A stretch of 64,000 nucleotides of DNA from a virus (IMGVR_UViG_3300031867_000002:64001-128000); one strand, 5' to 3'; counted from the stretch's first letter, positions 3,108 to 21,577 are shown. Notes: generated by a model from the sequence alone, not told the origin. A program made the numbers and translations.

Positions 3108-3197
3108 AATTCCTACTCATAACTCATAAGTAAAGACTACAGTGAGCAAGGTAGATATTACTTAGAGTTAAAATCTTAAAACCCATCACAATGGATA

Positions 3198-3230
3198 AGA
3201 AGGCTGCGTCGACAAGCAGCCTTCTTTTTT
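3198..3230 (+). terminator. intrinsic terminator
   Basis: AAGAAGGCTGC-loop-GCAGCCTTCTTTTTT. Confidence 0.8.
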
Positions 3231-3283
3231 GTCTGTCTAGCGGAACTTTAATATAAAACCAATATTTGAAGGAGGGAGTTATA

Positions 3284-4219
3284 ATGCCAAAAACGTATAA
3301 TAACACGTTTATATATACTAAGTTTCCATATGAAGAACATATCTTTCGTTTTCTAATCAATGCAGATAGAATAGATAAAGATAGTCCTAAGTTTGAAGAT
3401 GTAAAATATGAATTTAAGAAAAGACAAGTTAATAATGGCTTGTTAAAAGTATTGTGTTCCAAGAATGTAATTCTGTTACAATCTCAGGCTCAGCCACTTA
3501 ATACTCAGTTTAGGGTAATCTGTTCTAGAGACCCTAAGTTTAAATCTAATACTGATTACAAAGTATTCATTGATTGTACTGGACTTATTGTAAATGATAA
3601 GGATGGTAATTATAAATGCCGTAGTATTGATATTCTAATTTCTCATGTTATTAATGCTATGGTTACTATGATTTATCATAAAGCTGAAAAAGAAGTATTA
3701 TCCACTTATCTTGTTAAGAATACTATGACTGCTTTCTCTGCTTTGTTTACACATGTAATCGATTACTTAGCAAAGATTTCTGTAATCTCTTCTACTAAGT
3801 CTAAATGTCAATTCTTATCATGTATGTACTTTGTAGAGAATATACTTCAAAAGGAATTCAATGAAGGATACCAACATATGGCTGGCTCCATTTGTAATCT
3901 ATCAGATAGAGAACAAGAGATGATTATGGTACAATGTGATGAAAAAGACTTTGATAATATTAAAGCCTTCGTTTCTAAACTTTCAGACATTATTAAAGTA
4001 CCATCTCTTAAAGTAGATAATATTATTGATAAGTGGATGTATCTCTATGGTACTAACACTGTATTTGCTCTTGAGTATTATCCAGCTTTGTCTGCTATGC
4101 TTACAGATGCATATTGTGGAGCTTATATAAATAATCAAAAGACTATTGAAAAGGTTGTAGGTAATACACTAGTAGAATATTCTAAAGATATTATTTCTAA
4201 AGGTGGAGGTATGGTATGA
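3284..4219 (+). CDS. hypothetical protein, probably virion-associated (first gene of a late operon)
   Basis: GGAGGGAG RBS before ATG 3284, late promoter at 3244-3255, ATGA overlap with the next gene. Confidence 0.65.
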   Translation: MPKTYNNTFIYTKFPYEEHIFRFLINADRIDKDSPKFEDVKYEFKKRQVNNGLLKVLCSKNVILLQSQAQPLNTQFRVICSRDPKFKSNTDYKVFIDCTGLIVNDKDGNYKCRSIDILISHVINAMVTMIYHKAEKEVLSTYLVKNTMTAFSALFTHVIDYLAKISVISSTKSKCQFLSCMYFVENILQKEFNEGYQHMAGSICNLSDREQEMIMVQCDEKDFDNIKAFVSKLSDIIKVPSLKVDNIIDKWMYLYGTNTVFALEYYPALSAMLTDAYCGAYINNQKTIEKVVGNTLVEYSKDIISKGGGMV

Positions 4220-7200
4220 GTACTTATCTTGAAGATGCTCAAGGTAAAATCGTATCTAATCCTATTAATGAAACCAATACTAAGTACGCATATACTCCTA
4301 AGAATGAAGATAATGTTAAGGATGCAAATAACCATCCTATAGACTATCAATATATGTATAATGATGATGAACCAGTTAGCAATATAGATACTGATGTGTT
4401 CTCAAGTTATCGTAATAAGACTGAAGAACTAAGAACAAAGACAGAGAGTTATTATGAAGCTCTTGAATCTTGTTTAGTTCCAGCTGAAATTCCAGGTATG
4501 GCATTTCAACCTTGGGAGTATAGAAAAGATAAGGATGAAGATGGAAATGATATACTGACTAAGATTAAGTCTCTTCAGTATTTCTTCCAAGACCATCCTT
4601 CTAATATAGGCTCTGATGCTAAAGAATTTGTTTTTCGTACTAATAAGGTAAAGTTTGTTGATGACAGACATCGTAGATTAATCTATGATAGAAAGATTCA
4701 TATTATGGCTTTACAAGAAGACGAAGATAATAAAGTATCTTTTAAAGATGTATTGCTTCGTACATTCTTTACCTATTATAATAATCAGTATTGGTGTAAT
4801 GTAAGAAATCTTAATGGTGTTCAGTATACGATTAATAACCTTATGTCTAGCATTATAACAGCTAATACTAAAACTAAAGATAATGAAAAACTAGTTGTAC
4901 TAGTTGAAAATGAAGAAACTGGTGATATGGAAGAAAAAGTAGTAGAATCTGTATTAGACTTTGATTATGTAATGCAATCTGGTCAAGATATAAATACTAC
5001 AATTCCAAGCACTGTATATAACTTATATAACATTGGTTGGATTCACGCATCTATGATATTCTTAAATGGATTAGCAATTCAATGGACTAAAGCAATTATA
5101 TCTGTAGATAATATAGATACATTTGTTATAGTATCTGGTCTAGATGAACCACTATCAAGTTATATAGATAATGAAAAAGAAATTACTATGGAATACATTC
5201 ATATTCCTTTCAAGTGTATCTATACAGTAGGTATAGAAAATGCTTCTAATATGAATTGTCCATATAGAGAATTTCTAAACTCAACTAAGACTAAATTTGA
5301 TACAGTACCATTTATGTTTGATAGACGATATGGTGCTATATTACAAGTCTCAGATTATTATAAGAGTGCTACATCTCATAACACTTATTATGATAGAGTA
5401 ATTTGTGTAGACCCTAATATTAAATTTGCTGAGTTTTATCTTAATGAGGGTAATATTAAAAGTAACGAATTTTATCTTCCTGATATCGGTATACAATATA
5501 ATCAAGACTTTAGAGATTTCTGTAATAATGATTATAGATGTAAACTTAAACAGTTTAACTTTATAGGATTTGAACTCAATAAAGATATTAATGAAGAATT
5601 CGGCGCTAATTCCTTATTGACATTAAAGAATGATGACTTTAAAGTAACTTGGCACCCATTCAATATTTTAGACATCAGATTCAAACGTCTATATAATAAC
5701 AGACGTCTATTTAAAGTATTCTACAATACTAAAGTTTTATATGACCAAGATAATATTCTTCGTATTAAAAATCATGATAAACTTGCAGATGAGTATGAAA
5801 AGTATAGACAAGATGTAACTGCCAATATTGAAACTTATCTCAATGAAGTTTATTTACTTGCTAAGAAAGATATTGGTACTTATATTAATATGAATAAGAA
5901 GACTTATACTTATGGATACAAATATCATTATGTAACTCCATATGAATGCTTCTTATTGTTTAATGCTATACATGGTTTACTTGGTAGACAAACAGTATCA
6001 TTTGATGAGTTTAGAAAACTAAACGTAATCAATTATGAAATCCACAAGAAATCCTCTGATGACGGAGGAGGAGGAGGTGGAGGTGGTGGAGGAGGAACTG
6101 GAGACGGTTTTGATTATATATATCCAGAATATATATATGATGAGCCAGACGATGATGATTATCCAGATGATACACCTTCTTCAGATACTGACGATGATGA
6201 TGAACCGAAAATAGATACAGAACACTATGTAGGATATATGCGTGGTGGATTTGTAGTCTATGATGATGACCATAATTTCTTTAGCGAAATGGTTAAAGAA
6301 AAAACATTGTTCGATAACGAAGGAAATCTTAATGTAGATATAAGAGCATTTTGGGAAACTATTATAGCTCTTGATAGTGTTGCTTATTTAACAGATTTCT
6401 TAATTCCTATAGATGATGTAAGAAATAAAGAAGATGACGAACCAGTATCTAGTAATCTATTCTATATGTATAATGGAGACAACAAAGGTAAGATTGAACC
6501 ATATTCTAAATATATGACTGGTTATTCTTTTGTACAAGAATATGATGATGTATCTTATGACTTCCTTAAACTTAGATTTGAAATGTCTTATCTAAACAAT
6601 ATGGAAGAAGGAGCAACTCCAGTAGATGAATTTATTTATTACTTTGATAATGATAACTTCTTGAAAGCTAATGCTGCTCCAGTTGTATCTTCTTACGATA
6701 AACGGTATACAACAAACTTATTAAATGCATTAGCATATAATGTATTTAAATCAGACCCACATCTAGTATTAGAGAGTATACTGAAATTAAATTACTCTGC
6801 TGACTATATACTTCCTAAGTCATTACCTGTTAATACAAGTAGGGATAATATAATTACTTCATCAGAAACCAATTCTATATATTCAGATTATCATAAAGAC
6901 CCAAGATATTTCTATAACTTTGGTTATTACGATAATGCTACACCTCATAAGCTTGTATCAGAATGGGGTCTTAGACGTAATCTTCCAGAAATGTTCTATT
7001 GGGCATTAGAGGAAGATGAGTATACTATAGATAGTATGCATCTCTTAGATGAAGTATTTGATTTCACATACGGGTTTGATAAATCTTATGAAGAGAATCT
7101 GTTTGGTCAAGGTGATAAAACTAAAGGTATGAACTATATTATCGGTTATGATGCTGATAAAATAGAAGCTACTATAAAACGTGGTATTACATCATTCTCT

Positions 7201-9531
7201 AGGACAGGTAAAGAGATTAAAGATTATATCAATTCTCATCCTACAGAACTATATACGAGTATAGATAGTTACAAAATGTTTACCTTTGTAACTAATAATA
7301 ACTATATTGTTACTACTAGTCTTGAAAGATTATATGCTACTATCAATAGAAACGGTAGTGTATCATTCTCTTATGTAGATGGCGATGGTATATATCATGA
7401 GAATGTAACTACTGATATAGAGCTTAGATACAGAGGACAAGTAAATCCTACTATTAAAATCAATACTACTGATTGTACTATTACTGATATAGATAAAGGC
7501 TTTACTGTTACTTATGCAGCAAATAAGACAGTCTATAATAATGATACTGAGCTATTAGAATTTTATGATGATAATAATAATTTACTTGTTACAATGCAAG
7601 TAGATAGAATTAGTTCATATACAAAACTTAGTATGTCACGTTGGAATATATCTAAACAAGATAACTATGTAATGATATTTAAGAATAGAGTATTGTATGA
7701 TAAGTACTATACTATTCATTATACAGATATTTCATTCGATGTAGATATGAATGAATCTGATGTAACAGATGATGATGTATTTGAATTTGTATTCTTCCTG
7801 AATGCTAATAACAGAATCATTGAAAAGAAATGTACATCAGCTAGTGATGTATCATTAACTGTTCCAAGTGCTTATATATCTAAGAGTAGTAATGGTATTA
7901 GAAAAGATACAAATAACGATGATATGGACAAAGGTTTATATCAAACTTTAACAAGTGATTATACTTTTGATAAACCTGCTATAGCATGTGATACAAGTTT
8001 ATTTGATGCAGAGAATATTCAATTGCTTGTAAATAAAATGCCTAGTCATAATGATGATACTTATAGTACATCTGATAATAAAGTTACGACATATGAGTTA
8101 AACCATGATGTATATTATTATAGAGCTACTATAGATAATGGTACTTCTGTAAACTATCAGAGATTTGTTTATAATATCGTGAAAGATACTAAAGTAAATG
8201 GTCTTTATAGACTTACTAAACAAGGTGGAGGAGAATATTTCTTAACCTTTGATGGTACAGTTCCAGAAAAGACAGATACTATAACTACAGATACATCTGA
8301 CCCAAAATTTATAGACTATGGTTATCCTACTGACAGAACTCTTACATTACCATATACAATATACTTATCTTCTAAACGTCAATTTAGATATCAACATCAT
8401 GTAATTTCAGAAAATCATGATTCTGCATATCTAATGACTTTGAATTCAGACTTTAAGTTCTGTACAAAGAATAGTCACGTACTGTTATTCAAGAATGGCC
8501 TATTATTACCACCAACTTATTACTATCTACATTCTATTATAAATACCCCTATAAATCATGTAGGTATAATATTCAATATTCCTCTTGTGAAAGATGATGT
8601 TATAGATGCATTCTATGTGACTAATGATTTACATCATCTTGAATGCGATTATTATGATGTCGTTAATCAAGAACGCTATATATCAAATGGTGATATTAGA
8701 TTAAACTCTCATGATAACGAATATAGAGTAATGGGTGAAGATAAAAACCAAGTAGATTATCCAGAAAAGACTGAGCATCCTGATTGGAGAACAAACTATA
8801 TTAAAATGCGTTCTCCATTATATGCAATTTCTAGTAAACATTCTACTTTTGTATTCTTAAATGGAAAGAAAGTTATGATGAGTGAACTAGAGGATATATC
8901 TGATACAATTATGTCTATCAATACAGATTATGCTCGTAATGGTGATGATATGGCTGCTGTACGTTTGGAAGTAATTAATCATTTAGATGTACAAGATATT
9001 ATTGAACAGATGTATATCAATGATGGTTTAATGCATAGTAAGTCAGATTGTAATCTTCAGTTTGGTAGTACAAACAAACCAGAATCTTATAAAGATACAT
9101 TACAGATAAATCAGTTTTCTCTTACAGACCTAGAGTCATATGCTAAGAGGACTTTATTAGACGAAATACTAAATGATTTGTCTGATGAGAATCTAAACAA
9201 GCTATTCTATAATTATGATAATGCTACTGGTCCTATGACTCAAGAAGGTGAATTAGAAGAACCAGACTTCATTAAACCAGACGAGATTATAGATGAAATT
9301 ATAGACGAGTATTATTATGAAGATGATGGTGATAAGTTTATTTGGCATACAATGCATGATGAAGACAACGGATTCTCTAATACAGTATTCTATATTGGTG
9401 AAAAGGATAGTGTTAGAGTACCTGTAATATGGGATGAAGAAAATGTAAAAGCATTATACGGTACAACCTTCAATAGAAATGATATTATTAAGAAAATCAT
9501 TATTCCTGAAGGTGTAGAAAGAATTGAGTAA
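4216..9531 (+). CDS. large virion (tail/baseplate-associated) protein ending in the N-terminal half of a BspA-type LRR
   Basis: 1771 aa with repeated (V/I)FxNG strands typical of jumbo-phage structural proteins and a Gly11/acidic linker. C-terminus is VRVPVIWDEENVKALYGTTFNRNDIIKKIIIPEGVERIE-stop. Confidence 0.6.
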   Translation: MSTYLEDAQGKIVSNPINETNTKYAYTPKNEDNVKDANNHPIDYQYMYNDDEPVSNIDTDVFSSYRNKTEELRTKTESYYEALESCLVPAEIPGMAFQPWEYRKDKDEDGNDILTKIKSLQYFFQDHPSNIGSDAKEFVFRTNKVKFVDDRHRRLIYDRKIHIMALQEDEDNKVSFKDVLLRTFFTYYNNQYWCNVRNLNGVQYTINNLMSSIITANTKTKDNEKLVVLVENEETGDMEEKVVESVLDFDYVMQSGQDINTTIPSTVYNLYNIGWIHASMIFLNGLAIQWTKAIISVDNIDTFVIVSGLDEPLSSYIDNEKEITMEYIHIPFKCIYTVGIENASNMNCPYREFLNSTKTKFDTVPFMFDRRYGAILQVSDYYKSATSHNTYYDRVICVDPNIKFAEFYLNEGNIKSNEFYLPDIGIQYNQDFRDFCNNDYRCKLKQFNFIGFELNKDINEEFGANSLLTLKNDDFKVTWHPFNILDIRFKRLYNNRRLFKVFYNTKVLYDQDNILRIKNHDKLADEYEKYRQDVTANIETYLNEVYLLAKKDIGTYINMNKKTYTYGYKYHYVTPYECFLLFNAIHGLLGRQTVSFDEFRKLNVINYEIHKKSSDDGGGGGGGGGGGTGDGFDYIYPEYIYDEPDDDDYPDDTPSSDTDDDDEPKIDTEHYVGYMRGGFVVYDDDHNFFSEMVKEKTLFDNEGNLNVDIRAFWETIIALDSVAYLTDFLIPIDDVRNKEDDEPVSSNLFYMYNGDNKGKIEPYSKYMTGYSFVQEYDDVSYDFLKLRFEMSYLNNMEEGATPVDEFIYYFDNDNFLKANAAPVVSSYDKRYTTNLLNALAYNVFKSDPHLVLESILKLNYSADYILPKSLPVNTSRDNIITSSETNSIYSDYHKDPRYFYNFGYYDNATPHKLVSEWGLRRNLPEMFYWALEEDEYTIDSMHLLDEVFDFTYGFDKSYEENLFGQGDKTKGMNYIIGYDADKIEATIKRGITSFSRTGKEIKDYINSHPTELYTSIDSYKMFTFVTNNNYIVTTSLERLYATINRNGSVSFSYVDGDGIYHENVTTDIELRYRGQVNPTIKINTTDCTITDIDKGFTVTYAANKTVYNNDTELLEFYDDNNNLLVTMQVDRISSYTKLSMSRWNISKQDNYVMIFKNRVLYDKYYTIHYTDISFDVDMNESDVTDDDVFEFVFFLNANNRIIEKKCTSASDVSLTVPSAYISKSSNGIRKDTNNDDMDKGLYQTLTSDYTFDKPAIACDTSLFDAENIQLLVNKMPSHNDDTYSTSDNKVTTYELNHDVYYYRATIDNGTSVNYQRFVYNIVKDTKVNGLYRLTKQGGGEYFLTFDGTVPEKTDTITTDTSDPKFIDYGYPTDRTLTLPYTIYLSSKRQFRYQHHVISENHDSAYLMTLNSDFKFCTKNSHVLLFKNGLLLPPTYYYLHSIINTPINHVGIIFNIPLVKDDVIDAFYVTNDLHHLECDYYDVVNQERYISNGDIRLNSHDNEYRVMGEDKNQVDYPEKTEHPDWRTNYIKMRSPLYAISSKHSTFVFLNGKKVMMSELEDISDTIMSINTDYARNGDDMAAVRLEVINHLDVQDIIEQMYINDGLMHSKSDCNLQFGSTNKPESYKDTLQINQFSLTDLESYAKRTLLDEILNDLSDENLNKLFYNYDNATGPMTQEGELEEPDFIKPDEIIDEIIDEYYYEDDGDKFIWHTMHDEDNGFSNTVFYIGEKDSVRVPVIWDEENVKALYGTTFNRNDIIKKIIIPEGVERIE

Positions 9532-9551
9532 TAGAGAGGTGGTAATTATAT

Positions 9552-10628
9552 ATGGCTTATTCAGGGCAAGGACAAGGTACATCTACCGACCCATACCAAG
9601 TTACAACATTATATCAGCTATTAGAAGTTTTTAAAATATACAATGCTTCTGCCGTTGTACAACCACAAGTATATTGTAAGTTAATGAATGATATAGATTT
9701 CAATGACTATCAAGAGTATTGGTCTGTACCGAATGAATTATTTTATGCTAATAATACATCAACTGATACTTATAAACGTACTAAATTTATATATATAGAT
9801 GGAAATGGTTACGGTTTATATAATATGTATTGTTATAATAATACTTCTGTGTTTAAATGCTTTTCTACTACATCATCTTATCATAATGATATAATAATAA
9901 AAAATATAATTATAGAAGCTATATATATAATGAGCATTAGTAATAGTGGTAGTGATGGTGCTGATAAGCATAGATTTTGTAGTAGTGAGAGTTATTATTC
10001 TAGTGCTGTACATTTTATAAATAGTGATATAAGATTAAAATTATATGCATATACTACACCAAATCAATATTCTACTATGTTTTATATGTCATACTTTACA
10101 AATTGTATTATAAATATTGATATTATTTGTAATAACACTGTGTATATCAACAATTCTAGTGGTTATGATTATGGTTATGGTTACGATATTATTCAACAAT
10201 CTAGTACTAGTAGTGGAAACGATACAGACTATTCTAATTATTATAATGAATGGAATATACGTATTTTAGGAATTATGGAACAATCTGCAGGTACTAATTA
10301 TTATTTATCTCTTCTTGCTAGTGACCATAAATTTAGTTCATTCTTTATAGAAATGGTTGGTATTAAATCTAATATAGGAAATATTAGAATATCAGGAGGT
10401 TCTTACTTTTCTAATTGTTATTTTGTTGTTAAAAACAATAATTCGACATATACTGGAACTATGAAATTTGATTATTTTGTTACTGGTATTAATTTTTACG
10501 ATAAAGATATTGCGGATAATCACATTGTGGATACTCATAGCGGAAGTGGTTCATTACTTGCACTTACAACAGCACAATGTAAGAATGCAGAATATCTAGA
10601 ACAACAAGGATTCATTATAGCTAGATAA
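9552..10628 (+). CDS. putative beta-helix adhesin / receptor-binding protein 1 (GLUG-like N- and C-terminal motifs)
   Basis: GQGTSTDPYQVTT...YCKLMNDIDF...IDGNG...LTTAQCKNAEYL; paralog of 11247-12305. Confidence 0.55.
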   Translation: MAYSGQGQGTSTDPYQVTTLYQLLEVFKIYNASAVVQPQVYCKLMNDIDFNDYQEYWSVPNELFYANNTSTDTYKRTKFIYIDGNGYGLYNMYCYNNTSVFKCFSTTSSYHNDIIIKNIIIEAIYIMSISNSGSDGADKHRFCSSESYYSSAVHFINSDIRLKLYAYTTPNQYSTMFYMSYFTNCIINIDIICNNTVYINNSSGYDYGYGYDIIQQSSTSSGNDTDYSNYYNEWNIRILGIMEQSAGTNYYLSLLASDHKFSSFFIEMVGIKSNIGNIRISGGSYFSNCYFVVKNNNSTYTGTMKFDYFVTGINFYDKDIADNHIVDTHSGSGSLLALTTAQCKNAEYLEQQGFIIAR

Positions 10629-10639
10629 GAGGTGATTAT

Positions 10640-11194
10640 ATGTCTAGTTTTATTATAAATCCTAATAAGAGAGATGGATACCCTGTTATAGATGATAATA
10701 CACATGATTTTGGTCCTACACAAACTACTCCATATCCAAAAAGAGAATTCTATACTGGTTCTGATTTATTAGACGGGTATCCTATAATGGATGGTTGGAA
10801 AAGTTTTAGTCCAGTACAAGATAGCATATATCCAAGTAACATGTTTAGGATTGATGCTAGTAAAATGCAAGGCTATCCATCATTTTCATTCTTTGGAGAT
10901 TTTAGTCCAGTACAAGATAACATATATCCAAGTAACATGTTTAATATTGATGCTAGTAAAATGCAGGGCTATCCATCATTCTCATTCTTCGGAGATTTTA
11001 AAAATTTTGGAGCATTTGAATTTGCTGAAAATTTAACTAAGATAACAATACCTAGAAGTGTTCGGTATGTATGTGATTACGCTTTCTGGGGTTGTAATAA
11101 TTTAAAAAAAGTTCGTATACATCCAGATTGTGTATACTTTTCACATTCTTTTCCAGAAGAATGCGAAATTCAATTCTATGAAGAAAACGAATAG
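10640..11194 (+). CDS. adaptor-like protein 1: GYP repeats plus C-terminal half of a BspA (LRR_5) repeat
   Basis: Four xxGYP repeats, then GAFEFAENLTKITIPRSVRYVCDYAFWGCNNLKKVRI. Confidence 0.65.
   Translation: MSSFIINPNKRDGYPVIDDNTHDFGPTQTTPYPKREFYTGSDLLDGYPIMDGWKSFSPVQDSIYPSNMFRIDASKMQGYPSFSFFGDFSPVQDNIYPSNMFNIDASKMQGYPSFSFFGDFKNFGAFEFAENLTKITIPRSVRYVCDYAFWGCNNLKKVRIHPDCVYFSHSFPEECEIQFYEENE
10804..10995 (+). repeat. 96-bp tandem duplication (2 copies, 32-aa unit)
   Basis: 10804-10899 versus 10900-10995 differ at 6 positions by eye. Confidence 0.95.
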
Positions 11195-11246
11195 AATATA
11201 TGGCTAGCTCATATGAGCTAGCCTATTATGTAAAGGAGGTAAGTTT

Positions 11247-12305
11247 ATGGCTGTTACGCTTGAAGGACAAGGTACAGAAGATAGTCCTTACTTAGTATCT
11301 AATCCTGCTGAATTAAGAGCTGCTGTACAAATAGCTGATTGTTATATCAAACTTAAAACTGATATAGACTTTAATGACGATACTGTTATATGGGGATGGG
11401 AACCGCTTATGATATATTGCAAACAAATAGATGGTGATAATCATAAGATAACTAACTGTTATTGTTATCAAAAGTCTTTCATGATTGGTTGTGTTGGAGA
11501 AAACAATCCTTTTATTATGAAGAATACTATTATAGAAGCAATATATTTAACTAGTGCAACTCAAAGTAATGGTACTGGAGCTACTAATGGTGCATTTATT
11601 TTTCCATCATATTATAATATAAGTCGTATTTATATGTTTTTCTATGATTGCGATTTTAGAATTAAGTATTATGTAGAAAAAGACGATGCAATTCTTTTTT
11701 ATAATGCAGTTTCTTTTAATGGTGGTATGGTTTTTATTAGAAGATGTATATTAAATTTAGACATATTTCCAAATAATCATGACCAAATAAATATTTTTAA
11801 ATTAACTAGAACTGGTGTAGAAAGTAGTTTGATTAGTAATAATGAGATAAAGATAAATCTACATTTAGCTAATAATTTGTTTACTGGTAAAGAAGCCTTT
11901 AATAGAGATACAAGTTTAACTTCAAATTCTAAATCTTTATTACATATTTATTACACAGGCGGTAGTTATGATATTCCATATTTTACAAATAATGCTACAT
12001 TTATTAATATAGATGGTATAAATGAGAACTTACCATCTAAACTATGTATTTTATTATCATACGCTAAATCAATATCTAATTGTTATTTTATACTAAATGA
12101 TGTTAAAGGTAACTATCTTTCTTCTAAAGAGATACATTTTAAAATATTTTATGGAGGAGCTTGTTCTACATCTTGTTTTATGAATAATAAAGCTAAGTTC
12201 TATAATAAAAGCCTTACAAATAATGAACCGAACATGCATATTCTGACAGATGAACAATGTAAGAATCTACAAGAATTACTTAATATAGGATTTCTTGTTG
12301 TATAA
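11247..12305 (+). CDS. putative beta-helix adhesin / receptor-binding protein 2
   Basis: GQGTEDSPYLVS...YIKLKTDIDFND...IDGDN...IIEAIY...LTDEQCKN. Shares its ends with 9552-10628 and diverges in the middle. Confidence 0.55.
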   Translation: MAVTLEGQGTEDSPYLVSNPAELRAAVQIADCYIKLKTDIDFNDDTVIWGWEPLMIYCKQIDGDNHKITNCYCYQKSFMIGCVGENNPFIMKNTIIEAIYLTSATQSNGTGATNGAFIFPSYYNISRIYMFFYDCDFRIKYYVEKDDAILFYNAVSFNGGMVFIRRCILNLDIFPNNHDQINIFKLTRTGVESSLISNNEIKINLHLANNLFTGKEAFNRDTSLTSNSKSLLHIYYTGGSYDIPYFTNNATFINIDGINENLPSKLCILLSYAKSISNCYFILNDVKGNYLSSKEIHFKIFYGGACSTSCFMNNKAKFYNKSLTNNEPNMHILTDEQCKNLQELLNIGFLVV

Positions 12306-12318
12306 GAGGTGATGTATT

Positions 12319-12906
12319 ATGGCTGGTGGTGGAACTTTACAAGAACCTGAAATCATAACAAAAGCTTGGTGGGAATCTGATTTTACTTTAAATCCAGATG
12401 TATTAGACGGGTATCCTTCTTTTGCTGAATTAGGTAATTTTAAAGATAATACTATGGATTCTAAATATAACTTTACTAGTCATGTACAAGACTTAAATGG
12501 TTATCCATCTTTAAGATTAGGTCCTATAGTAGATTATAATTTTAATTCACATTACGTTTTTGCTACAGGAACAGACTATTTAAACGGTTATCCATCTTTA
12601 CAACAAGAGTATGTAAATATAATAGACGACTTTCTTATATATTCTAAGTATGTATTCTCTCATCAACAAGATAATACTTATATAGATGGATATCCAACAT
12701 TAGGACAACAAGATTTTGAACATTTTGGTGTTGCTAAAGATTGTACATTAGAAGAAGTTGTTATTCCAAAGTCTGTTATATTTATAGCAGACTGGGCATT
12801 CTATAATTCTAATATAACATCTGTAAAGATAAATAGACATTGTGTTTATTATCCTCATTCATTTCCTCCTGGATGTCATATTAAGCCTTATAATGATGAG
12901 GGATGA
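12319..12906 (+). CDS. adaptor-like protein 2: GYP repeats plus C-terminal half of a BspA LRR
   Basis: Four (D/N)GYP repeats, then LEEVVIPKSVIFIADWAFYNSNITSVKI...CVYYPHSFP; paralog of 10640-11194. Confidence 0.65.
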   Translation: MAGGGTLQEPEIITKAWWESDFTLNPDVLDGYPSFAELGNFKDNTMDSKYNFTSHVQDLNGYPSLRLGPIVDYNFNSHYVFATGTDYLNGYPSLQQEYVNIIDDFLIYSKYVFSHQQDNTYIDGYPTLGQQDFEHFGVAKDCTLEEVVIPKSVIFIADWAFYNSNITSVKINRHCVYYPHSFPPGCHIKPYNDEG

Positions 12907-12984
12907 TATATCATCCCTCATCTCTTTATCTTGAACAATATTATAAAACATAGACTCTTAAAAAGAGTCGGAAAGGATTGTGTT

Positions 12985-20626: not shown

Positions 20627-21577
20627 ATGAGAATATTAACTAATACTAATACAGGTTGTATCATTTCCGATACAGAACTTTTCCTTGAATATCTTTATGT
20701 TGGAGATTATGGTAAAGAAAATAATATTAAAGCAGACTTTCTTGGTTATACTAAAAGAATTGAAAAAGTAGAACATAGACCAGTAGATATTACAGATAAA
20801 CTGGTTGTTACTGTTTCTAGTCAAAAGGGTTGTCCTATGAAGTGTAACTTCTGTGATTGTCCTAAACTTGGTTTTCATGGTAATCTTAGTATTTATGAAT
20901 TAGTATCTGAAATTACAACAGCTATTTCACTTTCTAAGATTTCTCACGGTAAGCGTCTAAATGTTCATTTTGCTCGTATGGGAGAACCGACGTTCAATTT
21001 TAATGTTATAGATGCTGCAAGAATTATTGGTAGTATGATAAATGATACTTTTATGGAATATCATCCAGTAGTATCTACAATGATGCCTAAAAATAATAAA
21101 CGTCTAAAAGAATTCTTATTTGGTTGGACAGAGTTATTTTCAATATCTGATTGGAATGGTGGCATCGGACTTCAGTTCTCTATCAATACACTTGATGAAG
21201 AGGAAAGAAATAAGATGTTCGACAATAAGTCTCTGTCTCTTGAAGAAATTGGTAATATTATTAACGAACTTCCTATGCCAATAGGTAGAAAATATACACT
21301 AAACTTTGCAGTTACATCTAAGTCTAATCTAGATGTAAACTTAATGAATAAGTATTTTGATAAAAATAAATGCATTGTTAAAATTACACCTATTCATAAG
21401 ACACATGAAGCTGTAGATAATAATTATGAGATTATTACGGACTTCAATGTATATGAGAAATTTGAAAAGCCGTTGGTAGAAGATGGTTGGGATGTAATAG
21501 TATTTATACCATCTAAAGAAGAAGATGAGGACAGAATTACTTGTGGTAATTCTTTAATTGTAATGGGTTTATCTTAA
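20627..21577 (+). CDS. RlmN/Cfr-like radical SAM enzyme
   Basis: VSSQKGCPMKCNFC (CxxxCxxC), GNLS..E, MGEP, VST, LQFSIN and C-terminal ITCG. Confidence 0.8.
   Translation: MRILTNTNTGCIISDTELFLEYLYVGDYGKENNIKADFLGYTKRIEKVEHRPVDITDKLVVTVSSQKGCPMKCNFCDCPKLGFHGNLSIYELVSEITTAISLSKISHGKRLNVHFARMGEPTFNFNVIDAARIIGSMINDTFMEYHPVVSTMMPKNNKRLKEFLFGWTELFSISDWNGGIGLQFSINTLDEEERNKMFDNKSLSLEEIGNIINELPMPIGRKYTLNFAVTSKSNLDVNLMNKYFDKNKCIVKITPIHKTHEAVDNNYEIITDFNVYEKFEKPLVEDGWDVIVFIPSKEEDEDRITCGNSLIVMGLS

Follow-up and report, generated by a model that had tools for sequence, protein, structure and literature searches.

Adhesin-like beta-helix proteins of an uncultured jumbo phage may be carried by adaptors that complete folds divided between protein chains

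The analyzed DNA, hereafter called the window, is a stretch of 64,000 nucleotides that corresponds to bases 64001-128000 of the complete 224.6-kb virus record IMGVR_UViG_3300031867_000002, which has direct terminal repeats. Downstream of the gene for a giant protein of 1771 amino acids (P0001), the window carries two gene cassettes, each encoding a beta-helix adhesin-like protein (P0002 or P0004) followed by a small adaptor (P0003 or P0005). This arrangement is best explained, with a probability of roughly 0.45, as a modular surface-protein array held by two fold-complementation joints, and its role is most likely host adhesion or receptor binding. Each protein of about 355 residues would be a right-handed beta-helix of the GLUG/IgA1-protease type whose usual C-terminal capping hairpin (aromatic-x-I-N/D...GYP-x-L) has been relocated to the neighboring small protein. 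At the first joint, the N-terminal hairpin of the adaptor would finish the helix cap and thereby tie the adhesin to the adaptor. At the second, the miniature BspA-type leucine-rich repeat (LRR) of the adaptor, which starts in the middle of a repeat, would complement the end of the giant protein. The C-terminal tail of the giant protein and the LRR part of the adaptor, hereafter called the plug, would form one short solenoid, by which each adhesin-adaptor pair would be anchored on the giant protein. Feature coordinates are collected in Table 1. The sequence features quoted in an earlier note on this DNA (the open reading frames, the stop codon, the GYP repeats, the C-terminal cap, and the LTxxQCKN ends) were all located where that note had placed them.

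Adhesin and adaptor are probably two halves of one unit, and their complementation is well supported because the junctions of natural fusions match the motif of single-chain bacterial homologues. Related loci were drawn from IMG/VR, Logan, ENA, and JGI. Three natural single-chain proteins, P0034 (557 amino acids), P0080 (588), and P0081 (558), contain the adhesin, the hairpin repeats, and the plug in collinear order, and P0034 is encoded within the cassette array of the related phage L024 at the same genomic position. Across the junction, the sequence of the fusions is GF-NTTN-W-V-I-N...GYP, and that of the split forms is GFIIAR followed by a stop and then M-S-S-F-I-I-N...GYP, the two aligning residue for residue. 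The break between the two genes interrupts a motif that is intact in the single-chain bacterial relatives P0074, P0076, and P0060 (T.EMK...W.INPNKNNGFP.L). In the AlphaFold2 model of P0034, for which an alignment of fusions and adhesins (A8) served as input, the first hairpin (residues 350-362) was placed against the helix with a predicted local distance difference test score (pLDDT) of about 80. Two mixed alignments of fusions, adhesins, and adaptors (A5 and A6) had been misaligned by MAFFT and were dropped. The earlier note had stated that GLUG-type helices often run on into a GYP motif within one chain, and this continuation was seen intact in bacterial relatives such as P0074. Its proposal that the adhesin-adaptor fold is split across chains was strengthened in turn by the three fusions, the intact bacterial motif, and the modeled hairpin. 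Three types of adhesin C-terminal end each pair with the same type of adaptor N-terminal end in different phages, a pairing that linkage alone could also account for.

The adhesin-like proteins themselves are paralogues (27% identity, E 1e-19), and both end in the C-terminal motif LT..QCKN...L. The earlier note had described them as having conserved ends and a divergent middle; the ends were as described, but conserved motifs also occur in the middle. The AlphaFold2 model of P0002, based on a 13-sequence alignment, is a right-handed parallel beta-helix with a pLDDT of 84.6 and a predicted template modeling score of 0.88. Its best matches in the PDB were the beta-helices of IgA1 proteases (7uvk, Z 15.9; 6xja, Z 15.6; root-mean-square deviation 3.7 over 257-260 residues) and 3n6z from Bacteroides (Z 14.9); the alignments of these top three matches cover 246-260 residues. 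The next structural matches, at Z of about 13-14, were adhesins (PfbA, SRRP), polysaccharide lyases, pectin-modifying enzymes, and phage tailspikes, among which the HK620 and CBA120 tailspikes matched the model solely at the level of a generic helix. With lyases and tailspikes so close behind, the assignment of the predicted P0002 helix to the IgA1-protease subtype is a soft one. Acidic and basic residues are conserved within the helix. Searched against Pfam, Glug (PF07581) included, neither P0002 nor P0004 matched a family at E<=1. An exhaustive sequence search returned 58 adhesin relatives, including large bacterial surface proteins with Glug, M26_N, and cadherin-like domains. The link of P0002 and P0004 to GLUG is indirect, since only these distant Glug-bearing relatives and the fold connect them.

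The two adaptors are homologous over their full lengths (31% identity, E 1e-16). P0003 spans 184 amino acids (10640-11194) and contains four GYP motifs, and the number of hairpin copies per adaptor ranges from three to six across the family. Most of the further GYP repeats share the 12-residue spacing of the canonical hairpin, a regularity that is compatible with extra docking sites without proving them. That each hairpin holds one adhesin copy is speculative. Residues 125-170 of P0003 matched the Pfam LRR_5 family with an E of 3.4e-7 and 30.6 bits, above the cut-off of 27.7, and residues 141-176 of P0005 gave an E of 2.6e-5 and 24.6 bits, under it. Throughout the family (14 or more members) the adaptor LRR opens in mid-repeat and its own first strand is absent, and the C-terminal cap C..Y..HSFP..C....Y, with its two cysteines, is invariant or nearly so in 14 members. 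The plug also stands behind a different type of repeat, in P0020 (L014) and in the adaptor of L026.

Docking of the plug on the tail of P0001 is plausible, unproven, and weakly supported, with a chance a little short of even. P0001 ends in ...IPEGVERIE, and the TAA stop codon at 9529-9531 is directly followed by an in-frame TAG. The last 11 residues of P0001 and the first 12 of the adaptor LRR make up one 23-residue repeat, and the final 11-mer of P0001 ranks first among its 1761 11-mers as the first half-repeat for the adaptor; the in-register continuation across genes that the earlier note had described is thus confirmed. The end point of the giant protein is identical in eight assemblies (the window, L021, L018, L023, L015, L017, L024, and L026), in which the half-repeat end is accompanied by one (L026), two, three, or at least three cassettes. 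These assemblies are diverged and share the double stop as well as the end point. Because the eight are independent and agree, a sequencing error at the stop, which the earlier note had named as a possible refutation, was ruled out. The tail evolves under purifying selection: over its 52 codons, the ratio of nonsynonymous to synonymous substitution rates was 0.06-0.44, similar to the remainder of the protein, and synonymous divergence was about 0.4-0.7. Complex prediction for the tail (68 residues) and the P0003 plug (72 residues), carried out as three runs with three controls, gave scores of 0.91, 0.55, and 0.56 (median 0.56), with controls at 0.00-0.01 and a verdict of weak support. Contact agreement among the runs was at least 81%, and the pLDDT of the partner was at least 75. 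Of the 80 solved complexes in the benchmark for this score, 58 attained the mark, as did two of 110 mismatched pairs, and the band at or below 0.60 held only seven of the 80 solved complexes together with both of the passing mismatches. The proposal of the earlier note that the adaptor docks on the giant protein by its LRR therefore stood in part: the conserved end and the score of 0.56 speak for it, but the match of the tail to an LRR_5 profile did not materialize.

Several observations weigh against the proposed array. A complex score of 0.56 lies in a band where predictions fail more often than they succeed unless the pairing was already probable. The Pfam LRR_5 profile found nothing at E<=1 in the last 100 residues of P0001, and hhalign aligned the tail with the LRR_5 domain of its relatives over 14 columns at a probability of 1.3%. 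A profile of the giant-protein family showed no homology to AR9 gp276-gp280. Five relatives from IMG/VR (L001-L005) have neither cassettes nor the tail, although L001-L003 keep its first approximately 15 residues; four of the five are complete genomes in which adhesin and adaptor are found nowhere (checked with a positive control). In a tree of the RNA polymerase beta subunit, however, full support unites the cassette-less phages in one clade, and phages with and without cassettes fall into two clean clades. Because of this, the co-occurrence of tail and cassettes amounts to a single evolutionary contrast and not to eight. An unbroken LRR comprising tail and plug was not found in a natural giant protein, in a search that was weak; the corresponding search for the plug in longer proteins returned only P0083, an ordinary bacterial BspA-like protein, and says little, as even the known fusions were missed. 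A single tail would also have to serve two or three different plugs, which requires that multiple copies of the giant protein be present per particle, a plausible condition. Finally, in the P0034 model the pLDDT was 54-63 for the plug and about 30 for hairpins 2-5, which appeared unstructured; the adaptor part of the alignment there is three sequences deep.

In a possible, if doubtful, alternative, the adaptor LRR and its cap are self-sufficient and bind a different partner, such as a molecule on the host surface, some other protein of the virion, or another adaptor, the resemblance of the P0001 tail being coincidental or unrelated. The missing LRR_5 match of the tail, the weak complex score, and the single clade contrast are all in keeping with it, as is the fact that BspA-type LRRs are commonly ligand-binding and that the phage has a separate LRR_5 protein of 957 amino acids. 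A self-sufficient LRR would nevertheless not be expected to start in mid-repeat and without its first strand in at least 14 members, nor would an unrelated tail be expected to stop at the complementary residue in eight assemblies under purifying selection, with control complexes scoring near zero. The in-register break would be exactly what results if a cassette had landed in a C-terminal LRR of the giant protein that used to be complete, leaving halves that neither interact nor matter any longer. Relatives do have LRR_5 elsewhere in the giant protein, and the short remnant of the tail start in L001-L003 is of the kind that such debris would leave. Yet this history is very improbable, given purifying selection on the tail at the synonymous divergence stated above, the identical end point and double stop in diverged assemblies, and the loss of the tail along with the cassettes; an origin by fission is in any case compatible with halves that still cooperate.

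The remaining alternatives concern the role of the cassette proteins. The small proteins could be folding or assembly chaperones of the beta-helix proteins, much as tail-fiber assembly proteins are for their partners, and be absent from the finished particle, as might be suggested by a small gene directly downstream of that of its partner at a tight spacing and by the existence of fused versions, known also for intramolecular chaperones. This is improbable: in the single-chain bacterial homologues the hairpin belongs to the structure and is not a removable chaperone, and a chaperone role leaves unexplained the three to six hairpin copies as well as the plug and Cys/His cap common to adaptors of different repeat types. 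Searches of P0003 and P0005 against PHROG and Pfam matched no chaperone family and no tailspike-adaptor domain, which does not in itself exclude such a role. A similarly small chance is given to a module that acts off the virion, with the beta-helix proteins as enzymes or effectors on the host cell (polysaccharide-degrading or surface-modifying) organized by the repeat protein. Polysaccharide lyases and pectin-modifying enzymes among the structural matches of similar Z, the conserved acidic and basic residues of the helix, and the lack of a direct match that would place P0001 in the virion are in its favor, but the first gene of the block encodes a protein homologous to a virion structural protein of AR9, the block lies where AR9 has its tail genes, and by eye the module proteins have no recognizable N-terminal signal peptide. 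For the array as proposed, fold, position, and turnover are most reasonably taken to point to receptor binding on the virion, and the module may set host range.

The cassette proteins P0002-P0005 are the products of separate genes, since each gene has its own strong ribosome-binding site with a Shine-Dalgarno sequence, the frames differ, and a hairpin follows each cassette. The spacing from adhesin to adaptor gene is tight, at 11-13 nucleotides. Joining of the products by frameshifting or read-through was considered and ruled out by inconsistent frame shifts (+2 and +1), the strong ribosome-binding site of each gene, and the double stop of P0001.

Among the relatives the number of cassettes is zero, one, two, three, or at least three, and with the three fusions this answers the suggestion of the earlier note that related phages be searched for fused versions and variable cassette numbers. 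The adaptor of L021 is shorter than P0003 by one 96-nucleotide unit (152 versus 184 amino acids) and otherwise about 99% identical in protein sequence; gain or loss of this repeat has occurred between strains that are 97-99% identical. Gain, loss, duplication, and fusion of cassettes, along with changes in hairpin number, would fit a swappable specificity module. A portable, two-tier plug-and-socket, in which the half LRR of the giant protein would accept any adaptor and each of the three to six hairpins would seize one adhesin, is on present indications unlikely. In L024 an adhesin gene without an adaptor gene of its own (8233-9300) lies directly upstream of the fusion gene, an arrangement that would fit shared use of spare hairpins. 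In L023 (8032-9754) the middle adhesin is broken into open reading frames of 130 and 238 amino acids, and the adaptor that follows has lost the conserved cap through a change of reading frame near its end; this broken cassette may reflect either decay or an assembly error.

The source of the window is an uncultured jumbo phage of the AR9/PBS1-like type that has been encountered in metagenomes only. The genome codes for split multisubunit RNA polymerase beta/beta' genes, and its closest cultured kin are AR9/PBS1-like Bacillus phages and jumbo phages of Staphylococcus, Listeria, and Fusobacterium, with about 30-35% identity in the RNA polymerase beta subunit. The GC content of the window is about 30%. 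Megablast and tblastn searches with the region and with P0001-P0003 against 50,697 phage records gave no match, and a search of IMG/VR with the adaptor, both as a single sequence and as an alignment, found no relative; a metagenome scan with the adaptor led to one locus. The cassettes sit in a same-strand gene block that starts past a terminator at 3197-3226 and runs from a 317-residue protein through P0001 and P0002-P0005 to P0006, a membrane/GAF-like protein, in a position syntenic with that of the AR9 tail genes. P0001 matched no family in Pfam or PHROG and, by sequence, nothing meaningful in the PDB. Its atlas look-alikes, LRR_5 proteins of about 1350 amino acids, scored below 0.9 and serve as a lead only. 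Solely the neighboring gene and the synteny with AR9 suggest that P0001 is a virion protein.

Table 1 Features of the cassette region and its surroundings (window positions).
Feature	Position	Strand	Remarks
317-aa protein, first of the gene block	3266-4219	+	matches PHROG 'virion structural protein' and AR9 gp280
P0001, giant protein, 1771 aa, proposed 'socket' carrier	4216..9531	+	open reading frame and translation; homologues in 13 related loci
P0001 C-terminal tail, last 52 codons and stop	9373..9531	+	ends after first half of BspA-type repeat (IPEGVxxIE)
P0002, cassette 1 beta-helix adhesin-like protein, 358 aa	9552..10628	+	ends LTTAQCK...GFIIAR; AlphaFold2 model and PDB matches
P0003 N-terminal part, four hairpin motifs (aromatic-x-I/T-x6-GYP-x-hydrophobic)	10640..11005	+	residues 1-17 match continuation of adhesin C-terminal cap
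P0003 tandem 96-nucleotide duplication	10804..10995	+	94% identical; unit is one 32-aa GYP repeat
P0003 C-terminal part, putative 'plug'	11006..11194	+	second half-repeat, one full LRR_5 repeat, third strand, Cys/His cap
Perfect 9-bp GC-rich hairpin, gap between cassettes 1 and 2	11202..11223	+
P0004, cassette 2 beta-helix adhesin-like protein, 352 aa, type II	11247..12305	+	P0002 paralogue; orthologues in L021, L018, L015, L014
P0005, cassette 2 adaptor, 195 aa	12319..12906	+	four GYP hairpins; half-repeat plug and cap from ~12724
Terminator-like hairpin and T-run, end of cassette array	12895..12922	+

The organization of the giant protein was compared in the window (4216-9531), L001 (4800-11158), L015 (1896-8074), L017 (840-6988), and L026 (233-6315). 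It is a single chain of 1755-1771 amino acids in some phages and is encoded by two genes (about 1400-1530 and 600-625 amino acids) in others. In the two-gene forms a full LRR_5 domain of about 200 amino acids opens the second gene, where P0001 of the window has unrelated sequence. Residues ~614-660 of P0001 (window ~6050-6110) comprise 11 glycines in a row followed by a strongly acidic, proline-containing stretch of low complexity, which may be a flexible linker. The 957-residue LRR_5 protein is encoded beyond the window (G000:C1:149940-153152) and contains more than 20 near-identical repeats of 23 amino acids. An open reading frame of 107 amino acids on its 3' side copies its last LRR units and shares its C-terminus, suggesting that part of the gene was recently duplicated or that an alternative end exists.

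Other genes of the window were also inspected. P0006 (12931-13821), which follows the cassette array, has a membrane helix and a weak GAF-like region and is kept in all relatives, cassette-bearing or not; relatives begin at a methionine equivalent to 12986, so the true start probably lies downstream of the listed TTG. A MazF/PemK-like domain (Pfam E 1e-9) with an extension of about 130 amino acids is encoded at 1400-2206 without an adjoining antitoxin-like gene and is kept in L018. A radical-SAM-like protein (PHROG E 2e-83) is encoded at 20627-21577, beside RNA polymerase subunit genes, and is kept in L016. The motif AACA-N6-TA was tried as a late promoter, but 74 occurrences in the window against 84.7 expected represent no enrichment, and no conclusion on timing was drawn.

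Branched or adaptor-mediated receptor-binding complexes are known from other phages, for example the tailspike assemblies of CBA120 and G7C and the SP6/K1-5 adaptor with its alternative tailspikes, and several exchangeable receptor-binding proteins on adaptors are thus an established theme. As in those complexes, different receptor-binding proteins would here be encoded by consecutive genes behind a structural one, would carry docking pieces, and would be exchanged as modules between relatives. Those systems dock by complete N-terminal adaptor domains, whereas in the present case single folds would be divided over two chains and the adaptor bears three to six copies of the docking hairpin. The adaptor LRR shares the 23-residue repeat of BspA-type LRRs (LRR_5, PF13306), in the same register as the 957-residue protein of the phage itself, but is reduced to about 1.5 repeats with a special Cys/His cap and a mid-repeat start, and its complementary half would lie on another protein where the profile does not recognize it. 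Relative to the GLUG/M26 helices of IgA1 proteases (PF07581; 6xja, 7uvk, 3n6z), which supply the best structural matches, the Glug domains of distant relatives, and the end motif T.EQ.K...W.I....GYP.L of single-chain relatives, the capping hairpin resides in the product of a second gene, where it occurs in three to six copies. The principle recalls donor-strand complementation in chaperone-usher pili and the cleaved ectodomains of Toll-like receptors 7 and 9, in which two LRR halves stay together: an incomplete fold is completed by a piece of another chain, and the resulting non-covalent joint is stable and specific. The folds involved, the organisms, and the biological roles are different. 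A literature search for BspA/LRR or GLUG beta-helices in phage receptor binding found nothing relevant, and to our knowledge divided-fold docking has not been described in a phage receptor-binding module. Docking by divided folds would be new relative to the known adaptor systems.

How large phages attach and exchange many receptor-binding proteins is central to their host range and to their engineering for laboratory and therapeutic use. If the proposed array is real, divided-fold docking would be a new solution to this problem, one that is small, sequence-defined, and apparently transferable between cargo proteins, and would provide a natural case of split-LRR and split-beta-helix assembly. 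Should the plug-and-socket arrangement also hold, one particle could present several adhesins in many copies, and specificity could shift as cassettes are added, deleted, or fused or as the repeat number changes. If only the adhesin-adaptor joint holds, the locus would still record how genes have been split and joined within a structural motif that is conserved, closely related genomes bearing fused, split, and orphan versions, and the widespread end motif T.EQ.K...W.I....GYP.L of bacterial surface proteins could then act as a detachable connector.

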